A stretch of 64,000 nt of DNA from an uncultured Candidatus Saccharibacteria bacterium. Lineage in GTDB: Bacteria > Patescibacteriota > Minisyncoccia > Phycocordibacterales > UBA12445. The DNA lies in assembly GCA_964531375.1 (NCBI GenBank), contig CAZHDO010000004.1, positions 147-64,146 on the forward strand, read 5' to 3'. A program made the position numbers and the translations under genes. How positions within the stretch are numbered: the first letter of the stretch is position 1; each line of letters opens with the position of its first letter. This document shows positions 3,524 through 57,779 of the stretch, piece after piece. The notes below the pieces were generated by a model. That model saw nothing but the letters and a program-made list of their open reading frames with translations, did not search any database and was not told the origin of the DNA.

Positions 3524-5836
3524 TTACTTAGAATATAATCCCCTCTGCAAAGCATAAAAATTAGTCTGAATAGCTTCTACACCACCCAGCATTTGTTCTG
3601 CGTCTGAGATGGCGTGATATTTAAGGTTAAGTAATATTGGTAGTTGTTCCATACCGAGCTCATCAACACCTTTCTCCTCATACTTATCAAGAACGAAGTT
3701 TAGAAACTCCTTTTGTTTGTCGTCCAAGTCATCCAAGATAGCCACCCTGTTTGAAGCAACTCTATCTTTTCTAGAAATTGGCTGTGTAGCGAACTGAACA
3801 TAAGCAAGAACATCAAAGATATCGCTATCTTCGGCGCCTATTAATTTCTGAAGAACTTCTAACTCATCTCTACCATAACCGAGACCTGCTATCTTCTCCA
3901 AAAAGATCTTCCTAGTTTTTGGATCTGACCAGACCTTTCGCAACTCCTCTTCGTTCCTAAAGAAGTCGGGCATAATGCCAAACATATTCTGCATAAATTC
4001 TTCGACAGAAATCGGTCTTCCGTCTGCGCTCCAAAAAGAAGTGGCTATCATGTGCTGGATCTCTCTCTCCTTTCCATCTCGTAATTTTATTTTTAATTTC
4101 TTCACTGGTTCTTCTAATCCTTCCTGCACTTCGGATGATACTGGTGGATATTCGACGGCGGGTTTCTCTGCTTTTGGTTTTAGTGGATCTTCTGTTATAT
4201 CTGCTATAGGCTCCCCATCCCATTCAGGATCAGCAAAGTGATGATATGCGTCCACAAAATCTATAATAGTGAAATACTCTTTTCCTTCAAATAACCTTGT
4301 CCCCCTTCCGATAATCTGTTTGAACTCAATCATAGAATTAACCGGGCGCATTAAAACAATGTTCCTAATATTTCTTGCATCTACTCCGGTAGAAAGTTTC
4401 TGGGAAGTGGTCAGTATTGTTGGTATTGTTTTTTCGCTATCCTGAAACTCCTTCAAAAATTGTTCACCTCTTGTCCCATCATTTGCTGTAACACGGACAC
4501 AATAAAAAGGATCCTTACTCGTCTTATTTTGGTTTACAAGATCCCGGACAGCAGCGGCGTGCTCTTGCGTAGCACAAAAGACGAGAGTCTTCTCCTTTTG
4601 GTTTATCTCTTGAAGCATGAGCTTAACCCTCTTTTCCTCGCGTGCCTTTATTTCAATAATTCTATTAAAGTCTTCTTCTTTGTAAATTTTACCCTCTTCA
4701 ACTTCGCCCTCTATGATCTGGTCATCGGAAGTATAAACATACTCATCAAGTGTGGTCTGTATTCTTTTAACCCTAAACGGAGTTAAAAAACCATCATTAA
4801 TTCCTTCTTTTAGGGAATAAGTGTAAACAGGTTCTCCAAAATATTTATATGTGTCAACATTGTCTTTTCTTTTTGGTGTAGCAGTCATACCAATCTGAAC
4901 AGCCGGAGAAAAGTATTCTAAAATTGCCCTCCAGTTTGATTCATCATTTGCACCACCTCTATGGCACTCATCCACAAAAATTATATCAAAAAAGTCTTTT
5001 GGGTATTCACCATAGTATGGCGTATTATTCGGCCCACTCATAAATGTCTGAAATATAGTAAAGAAAACACTTCCATTTGTAGGAACACTACCCTTTTTTC
5101 TAATGTCCAATGGATTTATACGAACTAGAGCATCTTCTGGAAACACCGAGAAACCATTAAAGGCTTGATTTGCTAAAATATTTCTATCAGCCAAGAAAAG
5201 AATCCTAGGCCTTCTCACACAGTCCCGCTGTAAACTCCACCTTGTCTGAAAAAGTTTCCATGCAATTTGAAAAGTTATATCTGTTTTGCCTGTACCAGTG
5301 GCGAGTGTGAGAAGTATGCGCTGTTTATTTTCTGCGATAGCTTCTAGTGCTTTATTAACAGCAAGCTCTTTGTAATATCTAACACCAGAATCCCCAAACC
5401 TATTCTCAATAGTAATATCATTAAACTTCTCTCTCCATTCGTTTTGATCTGTATGAGTTCTATTCCAAAGTTCTTCGGGTGTGGGAAATTTGTCCACGTA
5501 TTCTTCATCACCCGTTTTCATATTTATCTGGTAAATTTCTTTACCATTAGTTGCGTAAGTATATTCTATTCTTAATTTTTGGGCATAAACTTTGGCTTGT
5601 GTGACTCCTTCTGTTGAGGGGTCATCTAATTTCTTAGCCTCAATTACAGCCAACTTTTCTTTTTTGTAAGACAAAATATAATCAGCTATCTCTGGCTTAC
5701 CACGGCCTCCACCCATTTGGATCTTTCCATCTGTAATACGAAACTCACGGTAGACTTTTGAGTCTTCAACAACACCCCATCCGCTTTCCTTAAGCTTTGG
5801 ATCTACATATTCAGCTCTTGTTTCTGATTCATTCAT
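3524..5836 (-). CDS. hsdR: type I restriction enzyme R subunit (HsdR)
   Basis: N-terminal HSDR_N-like segment, Walker A LATGTGKT, DEAH-box FVDECHR, helicase C-terminal motifs. Same strand as hsdM and hsdS. Confidence 0.85.
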   Translation of the reverse strand: MNESETRAEYVDPKLKESGWGVVEDSKVYREFRITDGKIQMGGGRGKPEIADYILSYKKEKLAVIEAKKLDDPSTEGVTQAKVYAQKLRIEYTYATNGKEIYQINMKTGDEEYVDKFPTPEELWNRTHTDQNEWREKFNDITIENRFGDSGVRYYKELAVNKALEAIAENKQRILLTLATGTGKTDITFQIAWKLFQTRWSLQRDCVRRPRILFLADRNILANQAFNGFSVFPEDALVRINPLDIRKKGSVPTNGSVFFTIFQTFMSGPNNTPYYGEYPKDFFDIIFVDECHRGGANDESNWRAILEYFSPAVQIGMTATPKRKDNVDTYKYFGEPVYTYSLKEGINDGFLTPFRVKRIQTTLDEYVYTSDDQIIEGEVEEGKIYKEEDFNRIIEIKAREEKRVKLMLQEINQKEKTLVFCATQEHAAAVRDLVNQNKTSKDPFYCVRVTANDGTRGEQFLKEFQDSEKTIPTILTTSQKLSTGVDARNIRNIVLMRPVNSMIEFKQIIGRGTRLFEGKEYFTIIDFVDAYHHFADPEWDGEPIADITEDPLKPKAEKPAVEYPPVSSEVQEGLEEPVKKLKIKLRDGKEREIQHMIATSFWSADGRPISVEEFMQNMFGIMPDFFRNEEELRKVWSDPKTRKIFLEKIAGLGYGRDELEVLQKLIGAEDSDIFDVLAYVQFATQPISRKDRVASNRVAILDDLDDKQKEFLNFVLDKYEEKGVDELGMEQLPILLNLKYHAISDAEQMLGGVEAIQTNFYALQRGLYSK

Positions 5837-8295: not shown

Positions 8296-9764
8296 AAATA
8301 TTTCTGAATATCCTTTAAAATTTTTCCACCCTCGAAGTCTAGTTCTTCTATCTCTTTCAAAATATCCTTCGGTTCTCTCAACACAGCTCCCCCTCCTTTC
8401 TTTGGATTCTTCACAGAAAGGTCAAAAGTTTCCTGGTTAATACCTTTCATATCCACACTCCAGGAGTTTTCTGAATCAGCTTTGGTCTTTTGCAGCTCAA
8501 CGAATTCCGCAAGATCCTTTTCATTAAGAGGATTGGTCTTTCCTAGGTTTCTATCAAGATTAAGCTGGTAATACCAGATCTTTTTCGTAGGAGATCCTTT
8601 TTCAAAAAACAAGACGACGGTCTTTACACCAGCGCCTTGAAATGTACCCCCGGGGAGATCAAGTATTGTGTGTAAGTTACAGGATTCAAGGAGAAGTTTC
8701 CTTAAAGAGACTGAGGCATTATCGGTGTTTGAAAGAAAGGTATTCTTAATAACAATACCAGCTCGTCCCCCTGCTTTGAGAATCTTTATAAAATGCTGTA
8801 AAAAGAGGAATGCAGTTTCTCCTGTCTTAATGGGGAAGTTTTGCTGAACTTCCGCTCTCTCCTTACCACCAAAAGGTGGGTTGGCCAGCGCGACAGAATA
8901 GCGGTCTTTCTCTTGAATGTCGGAGAGGTTTTCTGAGAGGGTATTTGTATGAATAATATGGGGAGCCTCTATGCCGTGGAGGATCATATTCATTATTCCA
9001 ATGATGTAGGCCAAGGACTTCTTCTCCTTTCCGTAGAAGGTACTCTTCTGAAGAGTCTCCATGTCTTTGGTAGAGAGGTTCTTATTCTCTTTCAAATAAT
9101 CAAATGCTTCTACCAAGAAGCCGGCAGAGCCCACGGCGCCATCATAGATCTTATCTCCAATCTTAGGGGCTACAACTTTGATTATGGTTTTTATAAGAGG
9201 GCGTGGCGTGTAATACTCCCCACCGTTTCTGCCAGCATTACCCATGTTCTTGATCTTCACCTCATAGAGATGAGAGAGTTCGTGTTTTTCGGCATGAGAG
9301 CGGAAGCGCATACCGTCTATGATATTTATTATCTCTCTTAGGGCGTATCCGCTTTGAATCCTGTTCTTTATCTCACTGAAAATTTCCCCGATCTTATATT
9401 CAATAGTGTCCGGACTCACTGCGTCGGTCTTAAACTTTTTTAGATATTGAAATAGACCGTTGTCTTTTGGGTCTAAGCGATTAACAAATTCCAATAGGTC
9501 GTCTCCTGTTAAGGCCTTGTTGTGGTCTAGTTTACCATCCTTGCCCTTTGGAGAGGCCCAAGTGTCCCAGTGATACTTAGGAGAGATAATATGCGTATAT
9601 TCCTTACCAGAAAGCTTAGCGGCTAAAGCCCTGTCCTTTTCGAGGTCATCCAAATATCTCAAGAATAAAACCCAGGAAGTTTGCTCAACATAATCAAGCT
9701 CACTGGAGGCACCAGCATCCTTATGGAGAATGTCGTCTATATTTTTGAATGATTGTTCGAACAT
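8292..9764 (-). CDS. hsdM: type I R-M N6-adenine DNA methyltransferase (HsdM)
   Basis: NPPFG catalytic motif (LANPPFGGKERAE); AdoMet-binding region DGAVGSAGFL; HsdM N-domain. Confidence 0.9.
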   Translation of the reverse strand: MFEQSFKNIDDILHKDAGASSELDYVEQTSWVLFLRYLDDLEKDRALAAKLSGKEYTHIISPKYHWDTWASPKGKDGKLDHNKALTGDDLLEFVNRLDPKDNGLFQYLKKFKTDAVSPDTIEYKIGEIFSEIKNRIQSGYALREIINIIDGMRFRSHAEKHELSHLYEVKIKNMGNAGRNGGEYYTPRPLIKTIIKVVAPKIGDKIYDGAVGSAGFLVEAFDYLKENKNLSTKDMETLQKSTFYGKEKKSLAYIIGIMNMILHGIEAPHIIHTNTLSENLSDIQEKDRYSVALANPPFGGKERAEVQQNFPIKTGETAFLFLQHFIKILKAGGRAGIVIKNTFLSNTDNASVSLRKLLLESCNLHTILDLPGGTFQGAGVKTVVLFFEKGSPTKKIWYYQLNLDRNLGKTNPLNEKDLAEFVELQKTKADSENSWSVDMKGINQETFDLSVKNPKKGGGAVLREPKDILKEIEELDFEGGKILKDIQKYL

Positions 9765-15873: not shown

Positions 15874-17148
15874 TTATATTCCAAACCAAGATCTAAGGCG
15901 AAACCACCAGATATTCTTATTTACAACCGACTTTGATGGCCTATTGGTAGACGTGGCAAATTCATCAGTAGAGGTCACCCCTACTGATATTAAAGGGTTG
16001 AGCTTAAGAGTATCTTTAATTATTTCTTTTGGTGATACTTTAAGTTGGGTCTCAATTTTTTGGATTGGCATTTCTGGAGTTTCAGTCTTTTTTTCAACCT
16101 TAGGAGTCTCTGTGGAGGCTTTGTTGTTAATTTCATTTTGTTTATCAATCCTATTCTGTAGGTCTTGAATTTGATTCATAAGAACAGAGATTTGAGCTGC
16201 GACATCATTTTTCTTTTGTGTTGGTTGTATGGGCTGTACTTGTAAAGGTTGTATTTGTGGAGATTCTATCTGCGGGGGTGTTATCTGCATTGAACTTGTC
16301 AGAGGGTTAGTGGTTTTAGTTTTTAGCCCCCCTGATCTTTGCGCAGAAAGACTCTTTAGCTGAGGAATTGGGCTCTTGATTGTCCTTATAAACGAGGACA
16401 TCATTGATGGTGGGTCAAAAGAATTAAACCAATACTCTAGATTTTCTTTCGGGGATACAATTTCTGGGCGACCAAAAGGTTTGCCATAATACACAATATC
16501 ACCTTCGCTTAATTTTAATGATTTAATCTTTTGATTGTAATTAATTTTTTGAATTCTAACAGAATCAGAGTCACTTTGGTTTGTAAGAGGAAATAAAAAA
16601 TCATCGCTATTATAAATTGTCCATGCCCAACTATCTACATATTTTCCAATCAAATTTTCACACCAACCAAAATCCTCATACAGGGTGTTCTTCACAGAAA
16701 CCAAGGAGGTTCTATCTCCGCTTAATACCTGTTTGGTGCCCCACCCTGAAACATTCTTTGCAGAAAAACAAAGGGTTTTTAAATTTTCTACTGTAGGATT
16801 TTGAAGAAAAGCATCAATAATATTCAGCGAGCCAATCTCAATTTTAACCATATCAACAAACTCACTCTGTGGAATGTTTTCGTCAATGATTAAGGTTGCT
16901 GGTTTGAGTAGTGAGGCATTTCGTGAATTAGAGTCAAAAATAATTTCTTTTTCATCAGCTTTAGAGGTAGAAAAAAGGTCATTAACAGTATCTACCGCGT
17001 TAGACCACAACCCTGCGTGTACGGAAGAGGGGCATTGTAAAAATAAAAGGGTCGTAATGATAAGAAATGATAATTTATTTAGTTTGTTTTTCATATTTTT
17101 TATTCTTCCAAACAAAAAGCCCACCACATGAGTTAGTGACAAAGTCAC
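15874..17148 (-). CDS. secreted hypothetical protein with P/Q-rich linker
   Basis: Signal-peptide-like N-terminus; PQIESPQIQPLQVQPIQPTQ low-complexity linker. Confidence 0.4.
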   Translation of the reverse strand: MTLSLTHVVGFLFGRIKNMKNKLNKLSFLIITTLLFLQCPSSVHAGLWSNAVDTVNDLFSTSKADEKEIIFDSNSRNASLLKPATLIIDENIPQSEFVDMVKIEIGSLNIIDAFLQNPTVENLKTLCFSAKNVSGWGTKQVLSGDRTSLVSVKNTLYEDFGWCENLIGKYVDSWAWTIYNSDDFLFPLTNQSDSDSVRIQKINYNQKIKSLKLSEGDIVYYGKPFGRPEIVSPKENLEYWFNSFDPPSMMSSFIRTIKSPIPQLKSLSAQRSGGLKTKTTNPLTSSMQITPPQIESPQIQPLQVQPIQPTQKKNDVAAQISVLMNQIQDLQNRIDKQNEINNKASTETPKVEKKTETPEMPIQKIETQLKVSPKEIIKDTLKLNPLISVGVTSTDEFATSTNRPSKSVVNKNIWWFRLRSWFGI

Positions 17149-17369
17149 TCATACAAGTTTCCCTGTACGGCAGAACATGCAACCCCATATGATGGGTTCT
17201 TTATGCATGTTCTGACTCTTTTCACCATGCCTGACACTGTGCCAAGTTTAGGCTACTTATTATTAAATTGTCTGCCTCTCTAAAATACCACAAAAACAAG
17301 AAAATATCCAAAAAAATAAACAGTAACCCTGATATTGGATTACTGTTTATTTTTTCAATTTATTATATT

Positions 17370-31065: not shown

Positions 31066-33186
<2,121 letters not shown>

Positions 33187-38071: not shown

Positions 38072-38875
38072 CTACCCTAAACATACGGCAATACCGCTCA
38101 CCAAAAGGCCAATTACGTCAAAATTAAAAACAAAGGCGACAAATGTTGAAAAAATTAAAAATGGGGCGAAGGGAATTTCTTTATCAAAGTCGAATTTCTT
38201 ACCTTTTCTTAAACTTGATATTTTGGCGACGAACATAATAAGTAATCCAACGATAGAACCGACAAAAAAAGATAACATTACGGCGCTTATATTCTGGCAA
38301 AAAGGAAGAAGCCACCCTATGCCAAGAACAAGTTTGGCATCACCAAACCCCATCCACGAACCATCAGATATCCACCAAAGCGTCGCAAAAAATGCTGAGA
38401 TAGCGAGGCCAGAAAAGAAGTCGTGGAAGAAATCTCCCTTTCCTAAATTAAAATCGAGAATCATTCTTAAAAAAGACAGTGCTATAAAGGCAAAAACAAG
38501 ACCATCAGGAATTATTTTGTGTCGATAGTCATAAACAGCAATAACGAGAAGAATAGAGAAAACTGTTAAATAAAGAGCGAGAATTGGAACAAATGAAACC
38601 TTGTATGCGACAAGAAGAAAAGCGAGACCAGTCAACACCTCGACGATCGGATACTGGATAGAAATCTTTGTTTTACAATAAGCGCACTTCCCCATTAGGA
38701 AAATATAGCTAAGAACAGGAACAAGATGAATCCAGCTTAAAGTCTTACTGCAAGAAAAACACATCGATCGCCCACCAAAAGTTTTGCCAGTGTTATAACG
38801 AAGAATTACAACATTCAAAAAACTACCGATAATTGTTCCGAGAATAAAAGTGGCTATAAAAAGTATTGTATCCAT
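38072..38875 (-). CDS. pilD: prepilin peptidase (A24 family); track ORF over-extended, start likely at MDTILF (38875)
   Basis: Zn-binding CFSCSKTLSW...CAYCKTKI; multiple TM helices; aspartyl-peptidase motifs. Confidence 0.8.
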   Translation of the reverse strand: MDTILFIATFILGTIIGSFLNVVILRYNTGKTFGGRSMCFSCSKTLSWIHLVPVLSYIFLMGKCAYCKTKISIQYPIVEVLTGLAFLLVAYKVSFVPILALYLTVFSILLVIAVYDYRHKIIPDGLVFAFIALSFLRMILDFNLGKGDFFHDFFSGLAISAFFATLWWISDGSWMGFGDAKLVLGIGWLLPFCQNISAVMLSFFVGSIVGLLIMFVAKISSLRKGKKFDFDKEIPFAPFLIFSTFVAFVFNFDVIGLLVSGIAVCLG

Positions 38876-39222
38876 TGGGTAAATTATATCATAAACAAAA
38901 ATCAAAAAGTAACTGTGGATATCTATGCTTTGGAAACGACGTTTCCAAAAAAGAAAGTAAACAAAATAGACAGCGGGAAACATTGCTTTTAAAAAATAAA
39001 CTACGCTTGGGGTTCGGAACTCTTCGGGAGAGGAGGAGGGAGTTCTGAACCCTGCTGGCTGCGGGAAACGTGGCTTCCAGGGGAAGACACGTTTCGTAAG
39101 TGGGAATGTGCTTCGCAAGTGGGAATGTGTTTGTGGGTTGGAGTGCGTTAAAAGACCAATAGCAAAACATCGTTTCACTTTGGAAACGATGTTTTGGAAT
39201 GCGTAAAATTTTCGACTTAAAC

Positions 39223-39681
39223 TTAAGGTGTTACATCGTACACGTTAGCGGCTGTGCCGTCGAATCCACCTGTTGTGGCGGCTGCTGCGAAACAAGCACC
39301 TGTGCCTGTAATAAGCGAATTACAGTCTCTGTCATTAGCTAGTACGCCCGTTCCTGCGGCAACTTGTTCCAACGTGGCTCCTAGGTGATAACTTGTTCCA
39401 TCTGGAGAAGCAGCGTAACTATAAGCAACTCCTGGTGTTGGAGCAACAGGTGCAGCTGCTAAAAACTCAGAACCAATAGCTGCGATTGTAGCTGGATAAG
39501 ACTGATTTGTATCATAATACAAACCCAAAGCTGTCTTAATTTCTCCAATATCTGCTACCCTCTTCGCATCTCTGGCCTTTGTCCTAGCGCTTTGTAATGA
39601 TACAACTACGACTGATGATAGAATGCCGATGATTGCAATAACAACGAGCAATTCAATCAATGTAAAACCTTTCTTTTTCAT
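39223..39681 (-). CDS. type IV major pilin (PilA-like)
   Basis: KKGFTLIELLVVIAIIGILSSVVVVSLQSARTKARDAKR is a canonical class III signal with mature F1/E5. Confidence 0.85.
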   Translation of the reverse strand: MKKKGFTLIELLVVIAIIGILSSVVVVSLQSARTKARDAKRVADIGEIKTALGLYYDTNQSYPATIAAIGSEFLAAAPVAPTPGVAYSYAASPDGTSYHLGATLEQVAAGTGVLANDRDCNSLITGTGACFAAAATTGGFDGTAANVYDVTP

Positions 39682-39711
39682 TTATTTTTAATGATTACTA
39701 ATAATTTATAA

Positions 39712-40239
39712 TTAATTTATTAACGTATAACAAGCTATCCCAGTATCACCAGTCAAACATTTTGCTGGATTCGCATCTGTACCAGTAGGTAAACCTAACC
39801 ACGAAGCATGCTCAGCACTCCCAGCGCACACAACCCAACCAGTACCTGGTGTCCAACTTTCAAGAGAGGATGATTGCAGTGCAGGACTCCCATTTTCTAA
39901 AGTAACGCTCATTTTAAATCTTGTACACTTGGTATTGTTTGTGTTACTGGCATAAGCTGTGTAAGTATAAGTATTATTAGCGGGATCGCTTGGTAAAACA
40001 CTCATATACTTTGACCCATTTAGAGTGGCCAGAGTTGGAGGAACTTGACCGAGATTATCATCGGCATACATTGTTAACGCTAATTGTATATTTTGAAGAT
40101 CTGAGATCCTCTTTGCATCCCTCCCCTTTGACCTTGCGGCACCCAACGATGTCAAAACTGTTGCAGCAAGCATACCAATTATGGCGATAACCACAAGAAG
40201 TTCTATAAGCGTAAAACCTTTATTTTTATTCTTATGCAT
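39712..40239 (-). CDS. type IV pilin (second major-pilin paralog); start at MHKNKNKGFTLIEL
   Basis: KGFTLIELLVVIAIIGMLAATVLTSLGAARSKGRDAKR. Confidence 0.8.
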   Translation of the reverse strand: MHKNKNKGFTLIELLVVIAIIGMLAATVLTSLGAARSKGRDAKRISDLQNIQLALTMYADDNLGQVPPTLATLNGSKYMSVLPSDPANNTYTYTAYASNTNNTKCTRFKMSVTLENGSPALQSSSLESWTPGTGWVVCAGSAEHASWLGLPTGTDANPAKCLTGDTGIACYTLIN

Positions 40240-40321
40240 TTTGTTTTTAATAATATTAATATTTATAAATTTTAAATTAAATCTGGATTGCTTCGCCCAA
40301 AGCTCGCAATGATGGGACGGA

Positions 40322-40657
40322 CTACGAAGTGGCAAGTTCTAAATTTTTAATTCTTTTGCCGTGGTCGATAATCGCAATTTCCTCAAATTCTTCCATTCTA
40401 TTATTTATCGTAAATACCTCTTTATGTAAGCCGTCGAGACTAACTTTCATAGAAGAAATATCAGTTTTAATTGAAGAAACATCTGATTCTAAAGAATTAA
40501 GTCTACTATCTACAATATCAAATCTTTTATCAATAGACTCAAACCTCTTATCAACAGATTCGAAACCATTTAACACGGCCTTTGCAAGCTGGTCTATGTT
40601 TTTATTAACCTCCCTGATTTCCCCAACCAAATCATCAATTGTAGTTTCTTTTTTCAT
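40322..40657 (-). CDS. coiled-coil hypothetical protein
   Basis: Heptad-like repeats (FESIDKRFDIVDSRLNSLESDVSSI). Confidence 0.35.
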   Translation of the reverse strand: MKKETTIDDLVGEIREVNKNIDQLAKAVLNGFESVDKRFESIDKRFDIVDSRLNSLESDVSSIKTDISSMKVSLDGLHKEVFTINNRMEEFEEIAIIDHGKRIKNLELATS

Positions 40658-41081
40658 AAATTAAATCTGGATTGCTTCGCCCACAGCTCGCAATGACGAG
40701 TGAGTGAAGATGAAAGTATCACTTGCCATCGACCTGTTAAAGTAAAAGCAAGGGATAATTTCCTATGCTGACAATTTTACTACTATCGCAAGTTAAATGC
40801 AAAAGTGGTGGTGGGGATAAATTAGAGGATAAATCGAAAAAGACAAGATTAAGGACCGTATTGGGAATCAGAAACGTTGTTTCCAAAAAGGAAGCTACGT
40901 TTCGGTTGGTGATAGATGGTGGTAATTAAAAATTGAGATTAATAGTGGCAAGATTAAATGGCCGTATTGGGAAATCAGAAACGTGGCTTCCACAGGAAGA
41001 CACGTTTCGCAGGTGGTAATACACCAATAGCGAAACGTCGTTTCCTTTTTGGAAACGACGTTTCTGAGACACCACGCTAGA

Positions 41082-42287
41082 TTAAATTCCGGTTGTGATG
41101 TTGTAGATTGGGCCGAGGACAGATGTGAGAAGAATACCAACAGCGAGACCAAGGACGACAATCATTAATGGTTCGATAAGACCGACTAAAGATTCGACGG
41201 CATTGTCTACTTCCCTCTTGTAAAATCTAGACATTGTCTTTAAGACGAAACCAAGGTTACCCGTCTCTTCGCCAATCTTTATCATTTGAATAAGAATTGC
41301 TGGCATTTGTGGGTATTGGCCGAGCGACTTCGAGAGAGAATTACCGGCCTTAACTTGCGTAACTGTTTCAAGGAGAATACCTCGATATAGGTCCGAGCCG
41401 ACAACGTCCGCTGTAATCTCAACTGAGCGCACCATTGCAACACCGCTTGAAATAAGCGTATCCATATTTTCTGAAAAACGAGACAAATAGAACATTTTAT
41501 AAAGATTTCCAACATAAGGTGTTCTCATTTTTATATCGGCAAGTATTGCCTGACCTTCTTTTGATTTTGAATATTTATAGAAAAAATATCCAGCAAAAAC
41601 AAGAGCGACAATTATTAATATACCGTTGTTCAACAAGAACTGGCTCAACGCAATAATAATTTTTGTGTAAATCGGGATATCACCGCCTGTTTCGGTAAGA
41701 ATATCTGTAAGTTTCGGAATAACAAAAACCAACATTAAAATCATAACAATGATAAATGAAGCAATGACAAATGCGGGATAAATAAGAGCGTTCTTTGCCT
41801 TTGAAACTAATTCGTATTCCCTCTCAAGATGGTCTGCTAAGTAATTAAAAGATTGATTTAACTTACCGGACTCCTCTCCAGACCTAACCATACTTACGAA
41901 AAATGGGGTAAATGCATTCTCATGCTTAGCCATAGCCGAAGAAATAGAAATACCGCTCTGAAGGTCATCTGCGATAGAAAGCATAACCTTTGTAAGTTGA
42001 GGATTATCTACCCCACTAGCAAGCAATTTAAAAGAATCGAGTGCAGAAACCTTGGCTTCAAATAACGTCGCAATCTGGCGAGACATAATAACCAGGTCCC
42101 TCTGACTAATACTTTGGAATTGCTCGAAAAATCTAGCGACGCCAACACTTTCACCGACAGGGTTTATTGAAACAACAATAAGTCCTTTTCTCTGTAGGGC
42201 GGTTATCGCTATGTCCATAGAAACAGCGTCAAAAACGCCTTCTTTTGGTTCATTCGCCTCGGTTATTGCTTTATAATTAAATAACAT
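41082..42287 (-). CDS. pilC: type IV pilus inner-membrane platform protein PilC (GspF family)
   Basis: Two GspF repeats; three TM segments; PilC-like GEESG motif region. Confidence 0.8.
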   Translation of the reverse strand: MLFNYKAITEANEPKEGVFDAVSMDIAITALQRKGLIVVSINPVGESVGVARFFEQFQSISQRDLVIMSRQIATLFEAKVSALDSFKLLASGVDNPQLTKVMLSIADDLQSGISISSAMAKHENAFTPFFVSMVRSGEESGKLNQSFNYLADHLEREYELVSKAKNALIYPAFVIASFIIVMILMLVFVIPKLTDILTETGGDIPIYTKIIIALSQFLLNNGILIIVALVFAGYFFYKYSKSKEGQAILADIKMRTPYVGNLYKMFYLSRFSENMDTLISSGVAMVRSVEITADVVGSDLYRGILLETVTQVKAGNSLSKSLGQYPQMPAILIQMIKIGEETGNLGFVLKTMSRFYKREVDNAVESLVGLIEPLMIVVLGLAVGILLTSVLGPIYNITTGI

Positions 42288-42376: not shown

Positions 42377-43441
42377 TTAAAGCAATCTTTCTAAACTTCT
42401 TGGACTTAATGAATGCTTTATTGCACTTTCAACGGTTATTTCTCCCCTTCGAACAAGATCCGCAAGAGAATGATTTAAATCAACCATTCCCGCCTCTGTA
42501 CCGGTTTCAATAACAACATTTATCTCAGCAGTCCTCCCCTCTCTTATTAAATTTGATACTGCGTTATTATTTATCAAAAGTTCGTAAGCTGGAATTAATC
42601 CACCTGAAATTCTTGGGATAAGTCTTTGAGAAAATACACCAAGCAAAGTAACAGATAGCTGAATTTTTATTTGAGACTGCTGATCTCCGGGAAAAGAATC
42701 GATAATTCTATCGATGGTCTGTGCTGCGTTGTTTGTATGTAATGTCGAAAGAATTAAATGACCTGTCTCAGCGGCAGTGACAGCCGTGCTTATTGTTTCT
42801 GGTGCTCTCATTTCACCAATCATCGCAACGTTTATGTCTTGTCGGAACATAGACTTTAGGGCTGATGGGAAACTTTCAGTATCAAATCGCACTTCGCGCT
42901 GGTCTATTATTGATCTATCACTTTCAAACAAATATTCAATAGGATCTTCAATTGTAAGAATGTGCTCTGCTCTTTCTCTATTTATATGATCAACCATTGC
43001 TGCGAGGGTTGTAGATTTACCTTGTCCGACAGGACCAACAACCAAAAAGAAACCTTGTTCTTTAAAAGCAAACTCCTCAAGAACAGGTGGCAAGCTAAGC
43101 TCTTTCATGCTTCTAATCTTCTTTGGAATTACCCTAAGAGCGCACCCAATCTGACCCTTTTGAAAAAAACCATTACCCCTAAACCTAACACCATGGGAAG
43201 AATCGTAGGCAAAATCAATATCTTTGTTTTGTAAAAACTTCTGTTTATTCTCTTCATTCAAAAGCTCAAAAATCAAACCCCTTGTATCTTCTGCTGTCAA
43301 AATTGGCTTAGAAACAAGCGGAATCAATTCACCAGACACTCTTATGCTTGGCTTTCTTCCGGCCGTGATGTGCAAATCAGAAGCGCCTTCTTTAAGAGTT
43401 ATACTAACTAATTCCTCTATTTGATTCTTGTAGTCGGTCAT
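42377..43441 (-). CDS. pilT: twitching-motility/retraction ATPase PilT
   Basis: Walker A GPVGQGKSTT; Asp box and His box of the PilT/GspE family; no N-terminal extension. Confidence 0.8.
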   Translation of the reverse strand: MTDYKNQIEELVSITLKEGASDLHITAGRKPSIRVSGELIPLVSKPILTAEDTRGLIFELLNEENKQKFLQNKDIDFAYDSSHGVRFRGNGFFQKGQIGCALRVIPKKIRSMKELSLPPVLEEFAFKEQGFFLVVGPVGQGKSTTLAAMVDHINRERAEHILTIEDPIEYLFESDRSIIDQREVRFDTESFPSALKSMFRQDINVAMIGEMRAPETISTAVTAAETGHLILSTLHTNNAAQTIDRIIDSFPGDQQSQIKIQLSVTLLGVFSQRLIPRISGGLIPAYELLINNNAVSNLIREGRTAEINVVIETGTEAGMVDLNHSLADLVRRGEITVESAIKHSLSPRSLERLL

Positions 43442-43478: not shown

Positions 43479-45056
43479 TTACAACTTACCTACCTCCTCA
43501 AAACCAATCTCGCCCTTAAAAGCCTTAAGGATAGCGTCTTCTCTCATTGTCTTCATACCCTTACTTCGCGCCAACTTTCTAACGTCGTCTTCGGATGGGT
43601 TTGTAAAAATGAGATTTTGCATATCTCGGTCAACTGTAAGTGCCTCAAGAACAGGCGTTCTTCCTCTATTTCCCGTAGAGCAAGTCGCAGATGGTTTTGC
43701 GTTATACACAACATCTGGAATTTTAATGTCTTTTCTTATCTCTTCAGGTAAATCTGCAAACTGAGCTTCAATGGTCGCTCTCATTTCTGGAGTTACGGGA
43801 ATTTCGCTCTTTGATTCTGAACACAATGTACCAACAAGTCTTTGTCCAATAACCAGGGTTAAGGTAGGAGCAATTAAATAAGGCTCGATTCCCATATCTA
43901 TTAGTCTAGGAATAGCAGCGATCGCATTATTTGTGTGAAGTGTTGAGAATACAATATGACCAGTCAAAGCAGCTTGAATAGCAAGTCTTGCTGTAATGGC
44001 ATCTCGAATTTCTCCCACCATTATAATATCAGGGTCCTGTCTTAAGATAGAACGCAAGCCACTAGCAAAAGTGTATTTAATTTCCGGACGAACTTGCGAC
44101 TGACTAACACCCTTAATATTGTATTCAATTGGATCTTCCAAACTGACGACGTTGTTCTCTTCTCTGTCGACTTCATTCATCATCGAATAAAGAGTTGTCG
44201 TTTTACCGGAACCTGTCGGTCCTGTAACAAGAATAAGGCCGTATGGCTTATCCATCGCCTCTTTAATAGCTTTCATGTGCGTCTCACTAAAACCAAGATC
44301 GTTAATTTTTTTAACACCTTTTTCAAAATCAAGGATTCTTAGCACAACTTTTTCGCCAAAATAAGTTGGGAAAGTAGAAACACGAAAATCTATTTGTCTT
44401 CCTTCTATTCTAGTAGAAAATCTTCCGTCTTGCGGAACCCTCTTTTCGTCCAGTTTCATATTTGTAAGAATTTTAATTCTCGCAACAATAGCATCTGCAA
44501 TATTTAAAGGAAGTGTGATACTTGTGTTTAAAACGCCGTCCATTCTAAACCTAACTTGTACCTTATCTAAGGTCGGCTCAATGTGAATATCGGAAGCGTT
44601 ACCGGTAACTGCATTTTGAATGATAACAGAAACTATCTTCGCCATTGGGGCGTCTTCTTTGTTTACTTCAAGAGTCTTAGAGGAAATATCTTTCATCAAT
44701 TCGTTCGTCACAGAATCTGCCGTCATTGGCATACCTTGTGTTGTGGCAAATTGCTGAAGAGCTTGATGTACTTCCCCCGACATTTCCTTATAACCGCCCA
44801 AGACAAGCTTCAGGTCGTCTTCTGAAATTACAAAGATTTTAAAAGGCAAATTGTGTTTATTTGCAGTAAAAGAAATAGCGTCTCTTGTCTCGATACTTTC
44901 TGGATCAATAACTCCAAATTCCAAAACCCCATCTTTAAAATCGATAGGCACAAATTTATAATAAGAGGCTGATTCCTCTGGAACATACTTCAAAACCTCC
45001 AGATTCGCAATTTTTCCTCCTAGGTCTCTCTTAGGGACTTCTTTTTTTGTATCCAT
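43479..45056 (-). CDS. pilB: type IV pilus assembly ATPase PilB (GspE family)
   Basis: Walker A VTGPTGSGKTTTL; N-terminal GspE_N domain; tetracysteine motif. Confidence 0.85.
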   Translation of the reverse strand: MDTKKEVPKRDLGGKIANLEVLKYVPEESASYYKFVPIDFKDGVLEFGVIDPESIETRDAISFTANKHNLPFKIFVISEDDLKLVLGGYKEMSGEVHQALQQFATTQGMPMTADSVTNELMKDISSKTLEVNKEDAPMAKIVSVIIQNAVTGNASDIHIEPTLDKVQVRFRMDGVLNTSITLPLNIADAIVARIKILTNMKLDEKRVPQDGRFSTRIEGRQIDFRVSTFPTYFGEKVVLRILDFEKGVKKINDLGFSETHMKAIKEAMDKPYGLILVTGPTGSGKTTTLYSMMNEVDREENNVVSLEDPIEYNIKGVSQSQVRPEIKYTFASGLRSILRQDPDIIMVGEIRDAITARLAIQAALTGHIVFSTLHTNNAIAAIPRLIDMGIEPYLIAPTLTLVIGQRLVGTLCSESKSEIPVTPEMRATIEAQFADLPEEIRKDIKIPDVVYNAKPSATCSTGNRGRTPVLEALTVDRDMQNLIFTNPSEDDVRKLARSKGMKTMREDAILKAFKGEIGFEEVGKL

Positions 45057-55832: not shown

Positions 55833-56089
55833 AATTAAAATTATATTACATTCAATCGATTCTTAAAACCGTTTGATTACTTAATAAAATTAGGAACAAA
55901 GAGTGGGATTCGGTCACGGATATTTTTTTGCAGAAAAATTCCTCGAAGTCCGTCAGTTGCGACGGACACCTGTAGACGGCCCACACAGCTCCTTTTCTTG
56001 CAGAAAGGGACCCGCTTCCGTCTTTCGAAGCCCACCTTCTCGCGCAAAATACAGTCATAAAACGCTTTCTCATTTTATTCATTATTTTA

Positions 56090-56176
56090 CGGAGAGAGTG
56101 GGATTCGAACCCACGGTTCCGATAAAGGAACGACAGTTTAGTAAACTGTTGATATAAACCACTCATCCATCTCTCC
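56090..56176 (-). tRNA. type II (long variable arm) tRNA, Ser-like; anticodon reads ACU in my fold (unusual)
   Basis: Minus strand: acceptor GGAGAGA/TCTCTCC; D-stem GATG/TATC; anticodon stem ACAGT/ACTGT; loop TTACTAA; long variable arm CGTTCCTTTATCGGAACCG; T-arm GTGGG-TTCGAAT-CCCAC. Confidence 0.7.
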
Positions 56177-56249
56177 AGATGATTTAGACAATATACAATA
56201 TATTAAAAAATAATTCTAGAAAAAACGAGGGTAAATAATTTAGTAAAAT

Positions 56250-57090: not shown

Positions 57091-57365
57091 TAATTTCGGA
57101 GCCGGATGGAATTTCTCTCCTTACAGGAGCAGTATCACAGATATTTTTCTGCAGAAAAATTCTTCGACCCCAACTCACTCGTCTTCACTCGCTCCGTCTT
57201 TGAAATGCTACCTGTCGTCGCATTTCAACCCCGATGGATTTTCTCTACGTCCTACGGACTATAAAAAATGCTCATCGGGGCTTCGAATCCATCTCGCAAG
57301 ACATTTAGTATGTCTTGCTCGGCTCCATATTTAAAAAAACCGCAATATCGCAGTTTTTTTAAATA

Positions 57366-57452
57366 CGGAGCCGGATGGATTCGAACCATCGAGGGCTTTT
57401 ACACCCTGCCTCTTTAGCAAAGAGGTACGTTAGACCACTCTGACACGGCTCC
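57366..57452 (-). tRNA. tRNA-Ser(GCU), type II
   Basis: Minus strand: acceptor GGAGCCG/CGGCTCC; anticodon stem CCTCT/AGAGG; loop TTGCTAA (anticodon GCT); long variable arm; T-arm GATGG-TTCGAAT-CCATC. Confidence 0.8.
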
Positions 57453-57779
57453 ACTTTATTTGATTATTAACTTAAAACAGCATTCTGGCAAAGAGGTACG
57501 TTAGGTCACGGATATTTTTCTGCAGAAAAATTCCGCTATCCTTACAGGATCAGTACACCTTTTGGACTTTTTCATTCGCCTTGCTCTGAAAAATTCTCAA
57601 GAAGGTTCTTCGCCTTTCGCTTTCGCGGCTCAGCCCGACTCGTTCACCATTACTCTCGCCCTTAATTTGCTTCAAGTATTCGCAAATTAACACTCTGACA
57701 CGGCTCCACTTTATTTGGTTATTTTCCTCAAAAACCTTGACTAGTATAGACTAAAACGTCCTTATCTACAAGCTTATGG

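Follow-up and report, generated by a model that had tools for sequence, protein, structure and literature searches.

The window analysed here is a 64,000-nucleotide stretch of a 36%-GC Patescibacteria metagenome-assembled genome, equivalent to contig JBAXTJ010000003.1 (GCA_037130235.1) 707-64706 in reversed orientation, in which two hairpin-rich intergenic spacers (loci 1 and 2) bracket the major-pilin genes of a type IV pilus operon on the minus strand. We assign a probability of about 0.7 to the reading that these hairpins are non-autonomous elements akin to repetitive extragenic palindromes (REPs) and their hairpin-forming doublets (REPINs), that they belong to the system of a Y1 transposase resembling the REP-associated tyrosine transposases (RAYTs), and that they now probably also act as 3'-end hairpins. 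The window hairpins share a core and an architecture with palindromes that co-vary with a RAYT-like gene, and this gene occupies locus 1 in sister lineages. Most probably the hairpins are selfish repeats that may have been reused to end transcripts, and no pilin-switching device, a finding that accounts for an eye-catching repeat array without invoking pilin switching. The analysis points to a REP/RAYT-type system in Patescibacteria, for which no description was found in the searchable literature; in Proteobacteria such systems are well described (PMC3337134, PMC3333891, PMC6006769). The variant is unusual in its perfect locus-specific palindromes, which co-vary with the transposase gene, and in the in-frame copies found there and in Saccharibacteria housekeeping genes; as a story of pilin regulation, the hairpins are ordinary.

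Hairpins in the two pilin spacers

Members of the family in the window, all of them restricted to the two spacers, are five hairpins of the form GAAACG-N4-TTCC / GGAA-N4-CGTTTC, a diverged copy and a perfect palindrome of 21 bp. The features of these spacers, and of a third cluster just beyond the window in a stretch of the same genome that reaches past its right end (L132), are as follows.

38877-39222: locus 1, the spacer between pilin-1 and pilD
38929-38949: perfect 21-bp palindrome TTTGGAAACGACGTTTCCAAA (19-mer core 38930-38948), 53 bp upstream of the pilD ATG
39010-39021 / 39041-39052, minus strand: inverted repeat GGTTCGGAACTC / GAGTTCTGAACC, 12-nt G+C-rich arms with 1 mismatch, 19-nt loop
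39065-39095: hairpin A1, GAAACGTGGCTTCC-AGG-GGAAGACACGTTTC, 31 nt, 14-nt arms with 1 internal mismatch
39093-39129: tandem repeat TTCGCAAGTGGGAATGTGC of a 19-bp unit (Tandem Repeats Finder, TRF: 1.9 copies, 94% matches)
39163-39196, minus strand: hairpin B', CAAAACATCGTTTC-ACTTTG-GAAACGATGTTTTG, beginning 26 nt after the pilin-1 stop codon
40658-41081: locus 2, the spacer between pilC and a coiled-coil gene
40838-41049: diverged tandem duplication, period 105-106 bp, each unit being CAAGATTAA..CCGTATTGGGAA-TCA plus a hairpin (C or A2)
40871-40903: hairpin C, GAAACGTTGTTTCC-AAAAA-GGAAGCTACGTTTC, in locus 2
40978-41008: hairpin A2, a near-identical second copy of A1
41032-41064: hairpin B, GAAACGTCGTTTCC-TTTTT-GGAAACGACGTTTC, beginning 17 nt after the pilC stop codon
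64397-64612 in window-equivalent numbering (L132 4091-4306): third cluster of three hairpins, adjoining a RelA_SpoT gene about 0.4 kb past the window's right end

Scanning of the whole 64 kb finds GAAACG....TTCC at the five hairpins only. The sequence GAAACGNCGTTTC, allowing at most one mismatch, has 4 matches in the window versus 0.12 expected, while the 32-nt hairpin A is present in two copies versus 0 expected (A1 and A2 differ by 1 mismatch over 32 nt). The palindrome at 38929-38949, the sole TTGGA-N9-TCCAA of the window, matches TTGGAAACNNNGTTTCCAA with 0 mismatches where shuffles expect 0. The stem-loop units are of REP type, with 14-nt arms and 3-6-nt loops, and the sense-strand RNA folds far more stably than shuffled sequence at both locus 2 (z = -7.5) and locus 1 (z = -5.6). 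All of the elements listed in the earlier note are present, several of its coordinates being one base low, and the ORFs with LP(L/V)EATF that it had taken for probable artefacts are just that, both translating hairpin A. The tandem duplication that it had put at about 110 bp is real but weak, with an overall identity of about 55% and an alignment score reached in 0/500 shuffles; TRF reports no array there.

Hairpin B is made of two GAAACGNCGTTTC palindromes 20 bp apart whose central triplets are complementary, forming a REPIN-like doublet. In both copies of hairpin A the two arms pair with each other, yet neither is self-palindromic. Hairpin C with its flanks (40868-40904) is an inverted copy of the hairpin B region (41031-41067), and these 92%-complementary 37-nt arms, 126 nt apart, give the inverted layout of REPINs and bacterial interspersed mosaic elements (BIMEs). 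Loci 1 and 2 also share a colinear, same-orientation module of hairpin A, spacer, CCAATAGC and hairpin B (on the sense, or minus, strand B or B' comes first, followed by GCTATTGG and then hairpin A), with an identity of 88% between 39065-39107 and 40978-41020 and of 79% between 39149-39186 and 41017-41054. Since locus 2 holds a single copy of the 19-bp unit, the repeat at 39093-39129 is a local duplication inside the module. Hairpin B' is homologous to B with two fully compensated G:C to A:T changes, and among the paralogous copies the stem changes at positions 1 and 6 (both G:C to A:T), 8 (C:G to G:C) and 10 (T:A to C:G) are fully compensated, thus pairing or two-fold symmetry has been maintained. 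The G+C-rich inverted repeat at 39010-39052 is unrelated in sequence to the GAAACG family and has no counterpart in the relatives described below; on the sense strand its loop reads CCUCCUCCUCUCCC, which is anti-Shine-Dalgarno-like, and a U-rich run starts about 10 nt downstream.

Within the covered part of this genome the family is multi-locus and intergenic. The third-cluster hairpins (GAAACGTCTCTTCC..., GAAACGTCGTTTCC-CTCTT-GGAAACGATGTTTC and GAAACGTCGT...ACGACGTTTC) are 90-92% identical to B and A2 over 37-41 nt, and this cluster alone was matched when loci 1 and 2 were compared by short-word blastn with all compared loci. Known copies amount to 9 hairpins and 1 palindrome in three clusters within about 65 kb, all of them intergenic, with no family copy inside any gene of the window. 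Two independent assemblies (ENA and NCBI contigs) stop at one and the same base, 94 bp past the third cluster, as expected if a repeat caused the contig end.

The RAYT-like gene and its palindromes

In relatives, palindromes related to those of the window bracket Y1 transposase genes. The comparison covered the pilus regions of eight relatives (L042/43, L044/45, L046, L047, L133, L134, L135 and L136) with PilC 60-76% identical to that of the window, the identity to PilC of Nomurabacteria-like genomes being 71-76%. In five Nomurabacteria-like relatives, L042/43, L044/45, L047, L133 and L135 (64-76% PilC identity), a gene of 217-234 aa with a PF01797 (Y1_Tnp) domain lies between pilin-1 and pilD, the place of locus 1; at this site it is absent from L046, L134, L136 and the window. 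The gene is bracketed in 3/5 carrier genomes by TTGGA-N9-TCCAA palindromes of the same type as the window's TTGGAAACGACGTTTCCAA. The bracketing sequence in L044, TTGGAAACC(C/G)GGTTTCCAA, is the window palindrome with another centre; the flanks read TTGGAGGTT-N-AACCTCCAA in L042 and TTGGACTCC-N-GGAGTCCAA in L047. L042, L047 and L135 have the same three-site layout with different inner bases (TTGGAGGT, TTGGACTC and TTGGAGA(C/T)). The position of the window palindrome at 38929-38949 matches that of the Y1 gene's 5'-flank palindrome in L044, L047 and L135. An internal, in-frame copy is present in each Y1 gene of L042 (13107), L044 (12988-13006, encoding FGNPVSK) and L047 (13961), and L047 additionally carries a two-palindrome hairpin doublet. 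Like the window, L134 has a solo palindrome (4030-4066) in the pilin-pilD spacer without a Y1 gene. In L133 the Y1 gene is reversed and the palindrome is a different, GTAG-containing one (TTACTACGAATCGTAGTAA; 8560-8620 and 9319-9349), to which the L134 solo palindrome is related. The pilin-pilD spacer repeatedly harbours Y1 genes, and these have more than one specificity.

The Y1 protein family, called RayT by some sources, has at least 734 members across Paceibacteria, with invariant HUH (NPNHFHF) and Y (SAYVNLN) motifs. The relatives' proteins score 34-38 bits against Pfam Y1_Tnp (gathering score 23), and their sole NCBIfam match is REP_Tyr_transpos at 25-28 bits, under the cut-off of 80. 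A sequence-profile search of the PDB with the family gave no matches. The AlphaFold2 model of the protein (predicted local distance difference test, pLDDT, 88; predicted template modelling score, pTM, 0.87) was compared by Foldseek, for which the best match is 4ER8_A (E 1.6e-6, TM 0.68), a structure of the REP-associated tyrosine transposase of E. coli in complex with a REP hairpin, with the IS608 and ISDra2 TnpA structures next at E of about 3e-4. The protein appears RAYT-like, its predicted fold being nearest to that of the E. coli enzyme.

The association of gene and palindrome extends to a metagenomic sample of 80 loci of the family (L048-L127), in 65 of which at least two cognate 19-nt palindromes lie at the gene, on its upstream side, within it and on its downstream side. 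Their median positions are -37, +439 and, counted from the end of the matched coding region, +40, and some loci have an additional in-frame copy near +170. The outer TTGG/CCAA bases are conserved, with relatives' flanks of the form (CAC)TTGG...CCAA(GTG), and the inner four bases vary between loci and agree within a locus, while the central triplet flips freely. The internal in-frame palindrome encodes a variable G-x-x-x-S-K loop and co-varies with the flanking copies; we know of no such in-frame copy of its own flanking palindrome in any described RAYT. Cognate palindromes also occur away from the gene, where 18 were counted in 493 kb; foreign motifs, used as a control, gave 8 in 1662 kb, and the cognate palindromes are thus 7.6-fold in excess. 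In L065 an adjacent doublet is among these copies.

Related doublets are found further afield. Scanning of GTDB genomes with the hairpin pattern gave 40 matches, 13 of them in Patescibacteria, and 10 of these 13 are doublets of two self-palindromic arms; eight of the ten, in Saccharibacteria, read TTGGAAAC-NNN-GTTTCCAA at both arms. These matches show no pilin association, with no prepilin-like ORF near any of the 40. Saccharibacteria doublets of the form CTTGGAAACNNNGTTTCCAA(N)TTGGAAACNNNGTTTCCAAG sit in frame inside the genes for glutamate dehydrogenase, MurG, MnmA, transketolase and UvrB, where they encode ETGFPSGNPVSK or GNGVSKLETPFP, at the following positions.

L004 1413-1445: coding doublet
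L021 7216-7248: coding doublet
L026 5290-5321: coding doublet
L032 528-559: coding doublet
L033 784-816: coding doublet
L040 7351-7382: coding doublet

In the scheme that we propose, the window hairpins would derive from a 19-25-bp palindrome, (CAC)TTGG-NNNN-NNN-NNNN-CCAA(GTG), represented in the window by TTGGAAAC-G(A/T)C-GTTTCCAA, and this ancestral palindrome would be the cognate DNA of the RAYT-like Y1 (HUH) tyrosine transposase family widespread in Paceibacteria. This genome, without a Y1 gene at the pilin-pilD site, would have kept one intact palindrome there, while hairpin doublets accumulated in the pilin-pilD spacer, in the next large spacer, from pilC to the pilin promoter, and in at least one other place in the genome. 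As E. coli TnpA-REP and IS200/IS605 TnpA suggest by analogy, the hairpins would form on single-stranded DNA and be bound, cut and rejoined by a Y1 transposase that is, or formerly was, encoded elsewhere in the genome. Local duplication would add the remainder, namely the repeats of 19 bp and 106 bp and the presence of the A-B module at either side. The simplest account of the bracketed pilin cassette is that spacers of 200 bp or more number only about 14, that loci 1 and 2 are among them, and that one of the two is the family's habitual home.

The elements can be compared with several known systems. With the REPs, BIMEs and REPINs of E. coli, Pseudomonas and Stenotrophomonas they share hairpins that arise from short extragenic palindromes and are clustered in alternating orientation, and, as in REPINs, the window doublets form longer hairpins; as in a REPtron, the relatives' Y1/HUH gene is bracketed by cognate palindromes and is syntenic between related genomes, and 4ER8 is the best structural match. 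Unlike REP/RAYT elements, which typically exceed 100 copies per genome, those described here have a low known copy number and lack a GTAG or CGTC tag, and are built on a perfect palindrome whose TTGG/CCAA ends are conserved and whose 3-nt centre flips freely. The protein also departs from RAYTs in its greater length (about 220 aa), in a conserved C-terminal extension, in scoring below the NCBIfam RAYT cut-off and in the in-frame palindrome copies inside the relatives' gene, and no transposase is seen in this genome. The IS200/IS605 elements likewise combine a Y1 HUH transposase with subterminal single-stranded hairpins and have hairpin-only non-autonomous derivatives, but they are multicopy with two different imperfect palindromic ends, whereas here the same perfect palindrome stands on both sides at the same site in several genomes, and the relatives' Y1 protein is nearer in fold to RAYT than to the IS608 or ISDra2 TnpA. 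The Rickettsia palindromic elements (RPE), reportedly described by Ogata and colleagues in 2000, are short palindromic repeats said to insert in frame into protein-coding genes. The Saccharibacteria doublets and the internal copies of the Y1 genes resemble them in this respect; unlike RPE, which measure 100-150 bp and have no known transposase, the window copies are all intergenic. In Neisseria, Correia elements and the Sma/Cla repeat downstream of pilE/pilS adjoin pilin genes. These too are short inverted-repeat structures beside pilins that can affect transcripts or recombination; the hairpins described here differ in having no sequence relation to them and no tie to pilins as a family, with neither silent pilin loci nor evidence of pilin recombination.

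Alternatives to the proposed mobile origin

Among the origins suggested for these repeats in the earlier note, the one resembling miniature inverted-repeat transposable elements fits best, as the core is shared with palindromes flanking Y1 genes at a syntenic site and a third cluster lies outside the pilin region. Several observations weigh against it nonetheless. The mobility of the hairpins is inferred by analogy. The window elements carry neither a GTAG nor a CGTC tag, and among the relatives GTAG occurs only in the L133 palindrome. Full TTGG...CCAA ends are found in one window element only, most arms keeping just the GAAACG...CGTTTC core within flanks of the form YRC-GAAACG...CGTTTC-TGA. 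The known copy number, 9 hairpins and 1 palindrome, is small, and dispersed cognate copies in the relatives, at about 1 per 27 kb, are far below classical REPs, a density that suggests tens of copies per genome of about 1 Mb, not hundreds. The Y1 gene is patchy among the relatives and reversed in L133, which could mean repeated insertion and not loss. In the 74 kb of this genome examined for a transposase, tblastn found no Y1 gene in the window, a PF01797 homologue was detected neither there nor in the 9.5 kb past its left end, and no Y1 gene is called in the roughly 0.7 kb past its right end. A remnant Y1 pseudogene in locus 1 or 2 was rejected as well, as none was detected by tblastn (E <= 10) or by short-word blastn versus all compared loci. 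For this genome's own enzyme an FGN(D/V)VSK peptide and TTGGAAACG(A/T)CGTTTCCAA flanks are predicted, and none of 120 listed homologues has the peptide, so that the cognate enzyme is unobserved. Finally, type IV pilus genes lie near the Y1 gene in only 3/44 loci of at least 6 kb, which rules out a general link between the family and pili; the link to pilins is specific to this clade.

Ordinary terminators or attenuators of the pilus operon, evolved locally and without any tie to a mobile element, are an unlikely alternative. Hairpins B and B' stand close behind the pilC and pilin-1 stop codons, at positions where the relatives have intrinsic terminators (a canonical terminator directly follows pilin-1 in 8/8 relatives, and one is seen after pilC in L042, L044, L046 and L133), the folds are strong, and in B' the outer stem has, through the two compensated changes, become an A-tract with a U-rich 3' arm. 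The window itself has no canonical terminator after pilin-1 or pilC, B' and B occupying these places instead; canonical terminators are used elsewhere in this genome. Genuine Rho-independent terminators share with the window hairpins a stable stem directly after a stop codon, but the latter are not followed by a proper U-tract in any instance, occur in arrays of three to four per spacer and have one common, conserved stem sequence. The consensus scan yields one weak 5-bp partial site, inside A2, with a site count below the shuffle expectation. The same family at a non-pilin locus, and the core palindrome flanking Y1 genes in the relatives, likewise count against this alternative. The suggestion of the earlier note that the repeats are terminators or attenuators survives as a possible co-opted, secondary role in the terminator slots of eight relatives, weakened by the lack of a proper U-tract.

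As elements of a RAYT-like system, the hairpins after the pilC and pilin-1 stops would serve as 3'-end or stabiliser hairpins that set the pilin mRNA off from the pilB-pilT-pilC and pilD transcripts, and because they sit directly after these stops, in the relatives' terminator slots, such a role is probable; a present-day function as ends of transcripts is plausible, though unproven and on weaker grounds than the mobile-element reading, and terminator function, which like mobility is inferred, counts against the full reading. Known REPs serve as mRNA stabilisers or terminators (PMC3337134, PMC3333891, PMC6006769, PMC3479197). For this lineage, these observations suggest that selfish hairpins took the place of ordinary terminators by which the highly expressed pilin transcript is set apart.

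It is distinctly unlikely that the GAAACGNCGTTTC palindromes are operators of a dimeric factor controlling the pilins and pilD, with the hairpins as operator pairs two helical turns apart. In favour of this reading, the solo site at 38930 forms a palindrome, as does each arm of B and of C taken singly, the spacing is 20 bp centre to centre and the sites lie upstream of the pilin and pilD promoters. However, the self-complementarity fails in hairpin A, whose arms pair only with each other, and the pilin -10 box is 70-260 bp downstream of the hairpins, which come right after the preceding stop codon. The sites are also missing from the same spacers of the relatives despite a conserved promoter and leader there, and related doublets are in frame inside housekeeping genes and the Y1 gene; regulator binding sites, another of the functions proposed earlier, are therefore disfavoured.

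Two further alternatives concern the 1.9-kb major-pilin cassette between the loci. In one, Patescibacteria would have an undescribed RAYT-like system with in-frame copies of the recognition palindrome in its transposase gene and with doublets that colonise both spacers and housekeeping genes, and its Y1 enzyme could excise and re-insert the cassette as single-stranded DNA, using the same-orientation modules as ends. If true, this would give bacteria dependent on type IV pili a way to exchange pilin cassettes; we consider it very improbable. The broader proposal that the A-B direct repeats are substrates for deletion, excision or exchange of the cassette, whether in phase or antigenic variation or through Y1 mobilisation, is more doubtful again. 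The module does lie in the same orientation on both sides, cassette content varies among the relatives (2 or 3 pilins, with the coiled-coil gene only here), and Y1 excision of DNA between two hairpin ends is established for IS200/IS605. The repeats are nevertheless short (43 nt at 88%, 38 nt at 79%), the one second assembly compared is identical at both loci (over 20 kb it has a single mismatch, in pilC), the gene neighbourhood called in the other contigs on record is no different, the window holds no silent pilin copies and the third cluster stands apart from the pilins. The earlier note's idea of cassette exchange or phase variation of the pilins thus finds no support.

Structured non-coding or cis-regulatory RNA acting on the pilin mRNA is scarcely credible, since despite the very low fold z-scores and compensated stems the modules have no Rfam match even at E <= 1 and no conservation in the relatives at 60-76% PilC identity, and perfect palindromes fold equally on both strands and as DNA. 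Other candidates were rejected: known RNA families (none at Rfam gathering thresholds or at E <= 1), a phage origin (no match in an IMG/VR search with the hairpin pattern), a DNA-uptake sequence (GGAAACG occurs 7 times in 64 kb, 6 of them in the two loci) and, on reading, integron attC sites, the ends being GAAACG/CGTTTC and not RYYYAAC/GTTRRRY.

Gene calls, pilin leader and neighbouring repeats

The genes around the two spacers are arranged as follows.

43479-45056, minus strand: pilB
42377-43441, minus strand: pilT
41082-42287, minus strand: pilC
40322-40657, minus strand: coiled-coil gene
39712-40243, minus strand: pilin-2
39223-39681, minus strand: pilin-1
about 38072-38876, minus strand: pilD, after which the minor pilins come

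The public PilD call of 368 aa begins at a GTG (39178) and crosses locus 1 (38877-39178, minus strand), while PilD of the relatives (261-296 aa) begins at the position that corresponds to the window's ATG at 38876 (MDTI...). The extra N-terminal stretch is a repeat artefact, and for annotation both this call and the ORFs across the two spacers should be treated as such.

A conserved pilin promoter (-35 TTTTGC/T, -10 AGTAnAAT), with a leader behind it that is conserved too, is found at 40708-40803 on the minus strand of the window and at the following positions in the relatives.

L042 11640-11745: promoter and leader
L044 11355-11460: promoter and leader
L046 11365-11461: promoter and leader
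L047 11620-11735: promoter and leader
L133 7300-7385: promoter and leader
L134 2480-2572: promoter and leader
L135 6800-6880: promoter and leader

In the leader a stem closes a region with a near-invariant GGUCGAU(G/A), and RNAalifold on eight sequences predicts 13 pairs, 9 of them with compensatory changes. It has no match in Rfam and is a candidate cis-regulatory leader for the clade's major pilin genes.

A second, unrelated repeat family, TCATTGCGAGC-loop-GCGAAGCAATCC(AGATTTAATTT), occurs at these positions.

window 40273-40312 and 40657-40696 (minus strand), 32752-32781 (plus strand)
L042 11270-11560
L047 11340-11410
L134 2140-2370

Two 40-bp copies, 98% identical and 384 bp apart, bracket the coiled-coil gene, and in the relatives several copies lie in the pilC-pilin spacer. 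The absence of the coiled-coil gene from the pilin cassettes of 8/8 relatives suggests that it came in by insertion or duplication.

Elsewhere in the window, ARAGORN calls a tRNA-Ser with anticodon ACU at 56089-56177 on the minus strand, near a tRNA-Ser(GCU) at 57365-57453; an A34 serine tRNA would be unusual, and the call may be erroneous. A LOOT RNA (RF03000) matches 17135-17254 on the minus strand with 70.6 bits, over its gathering score.

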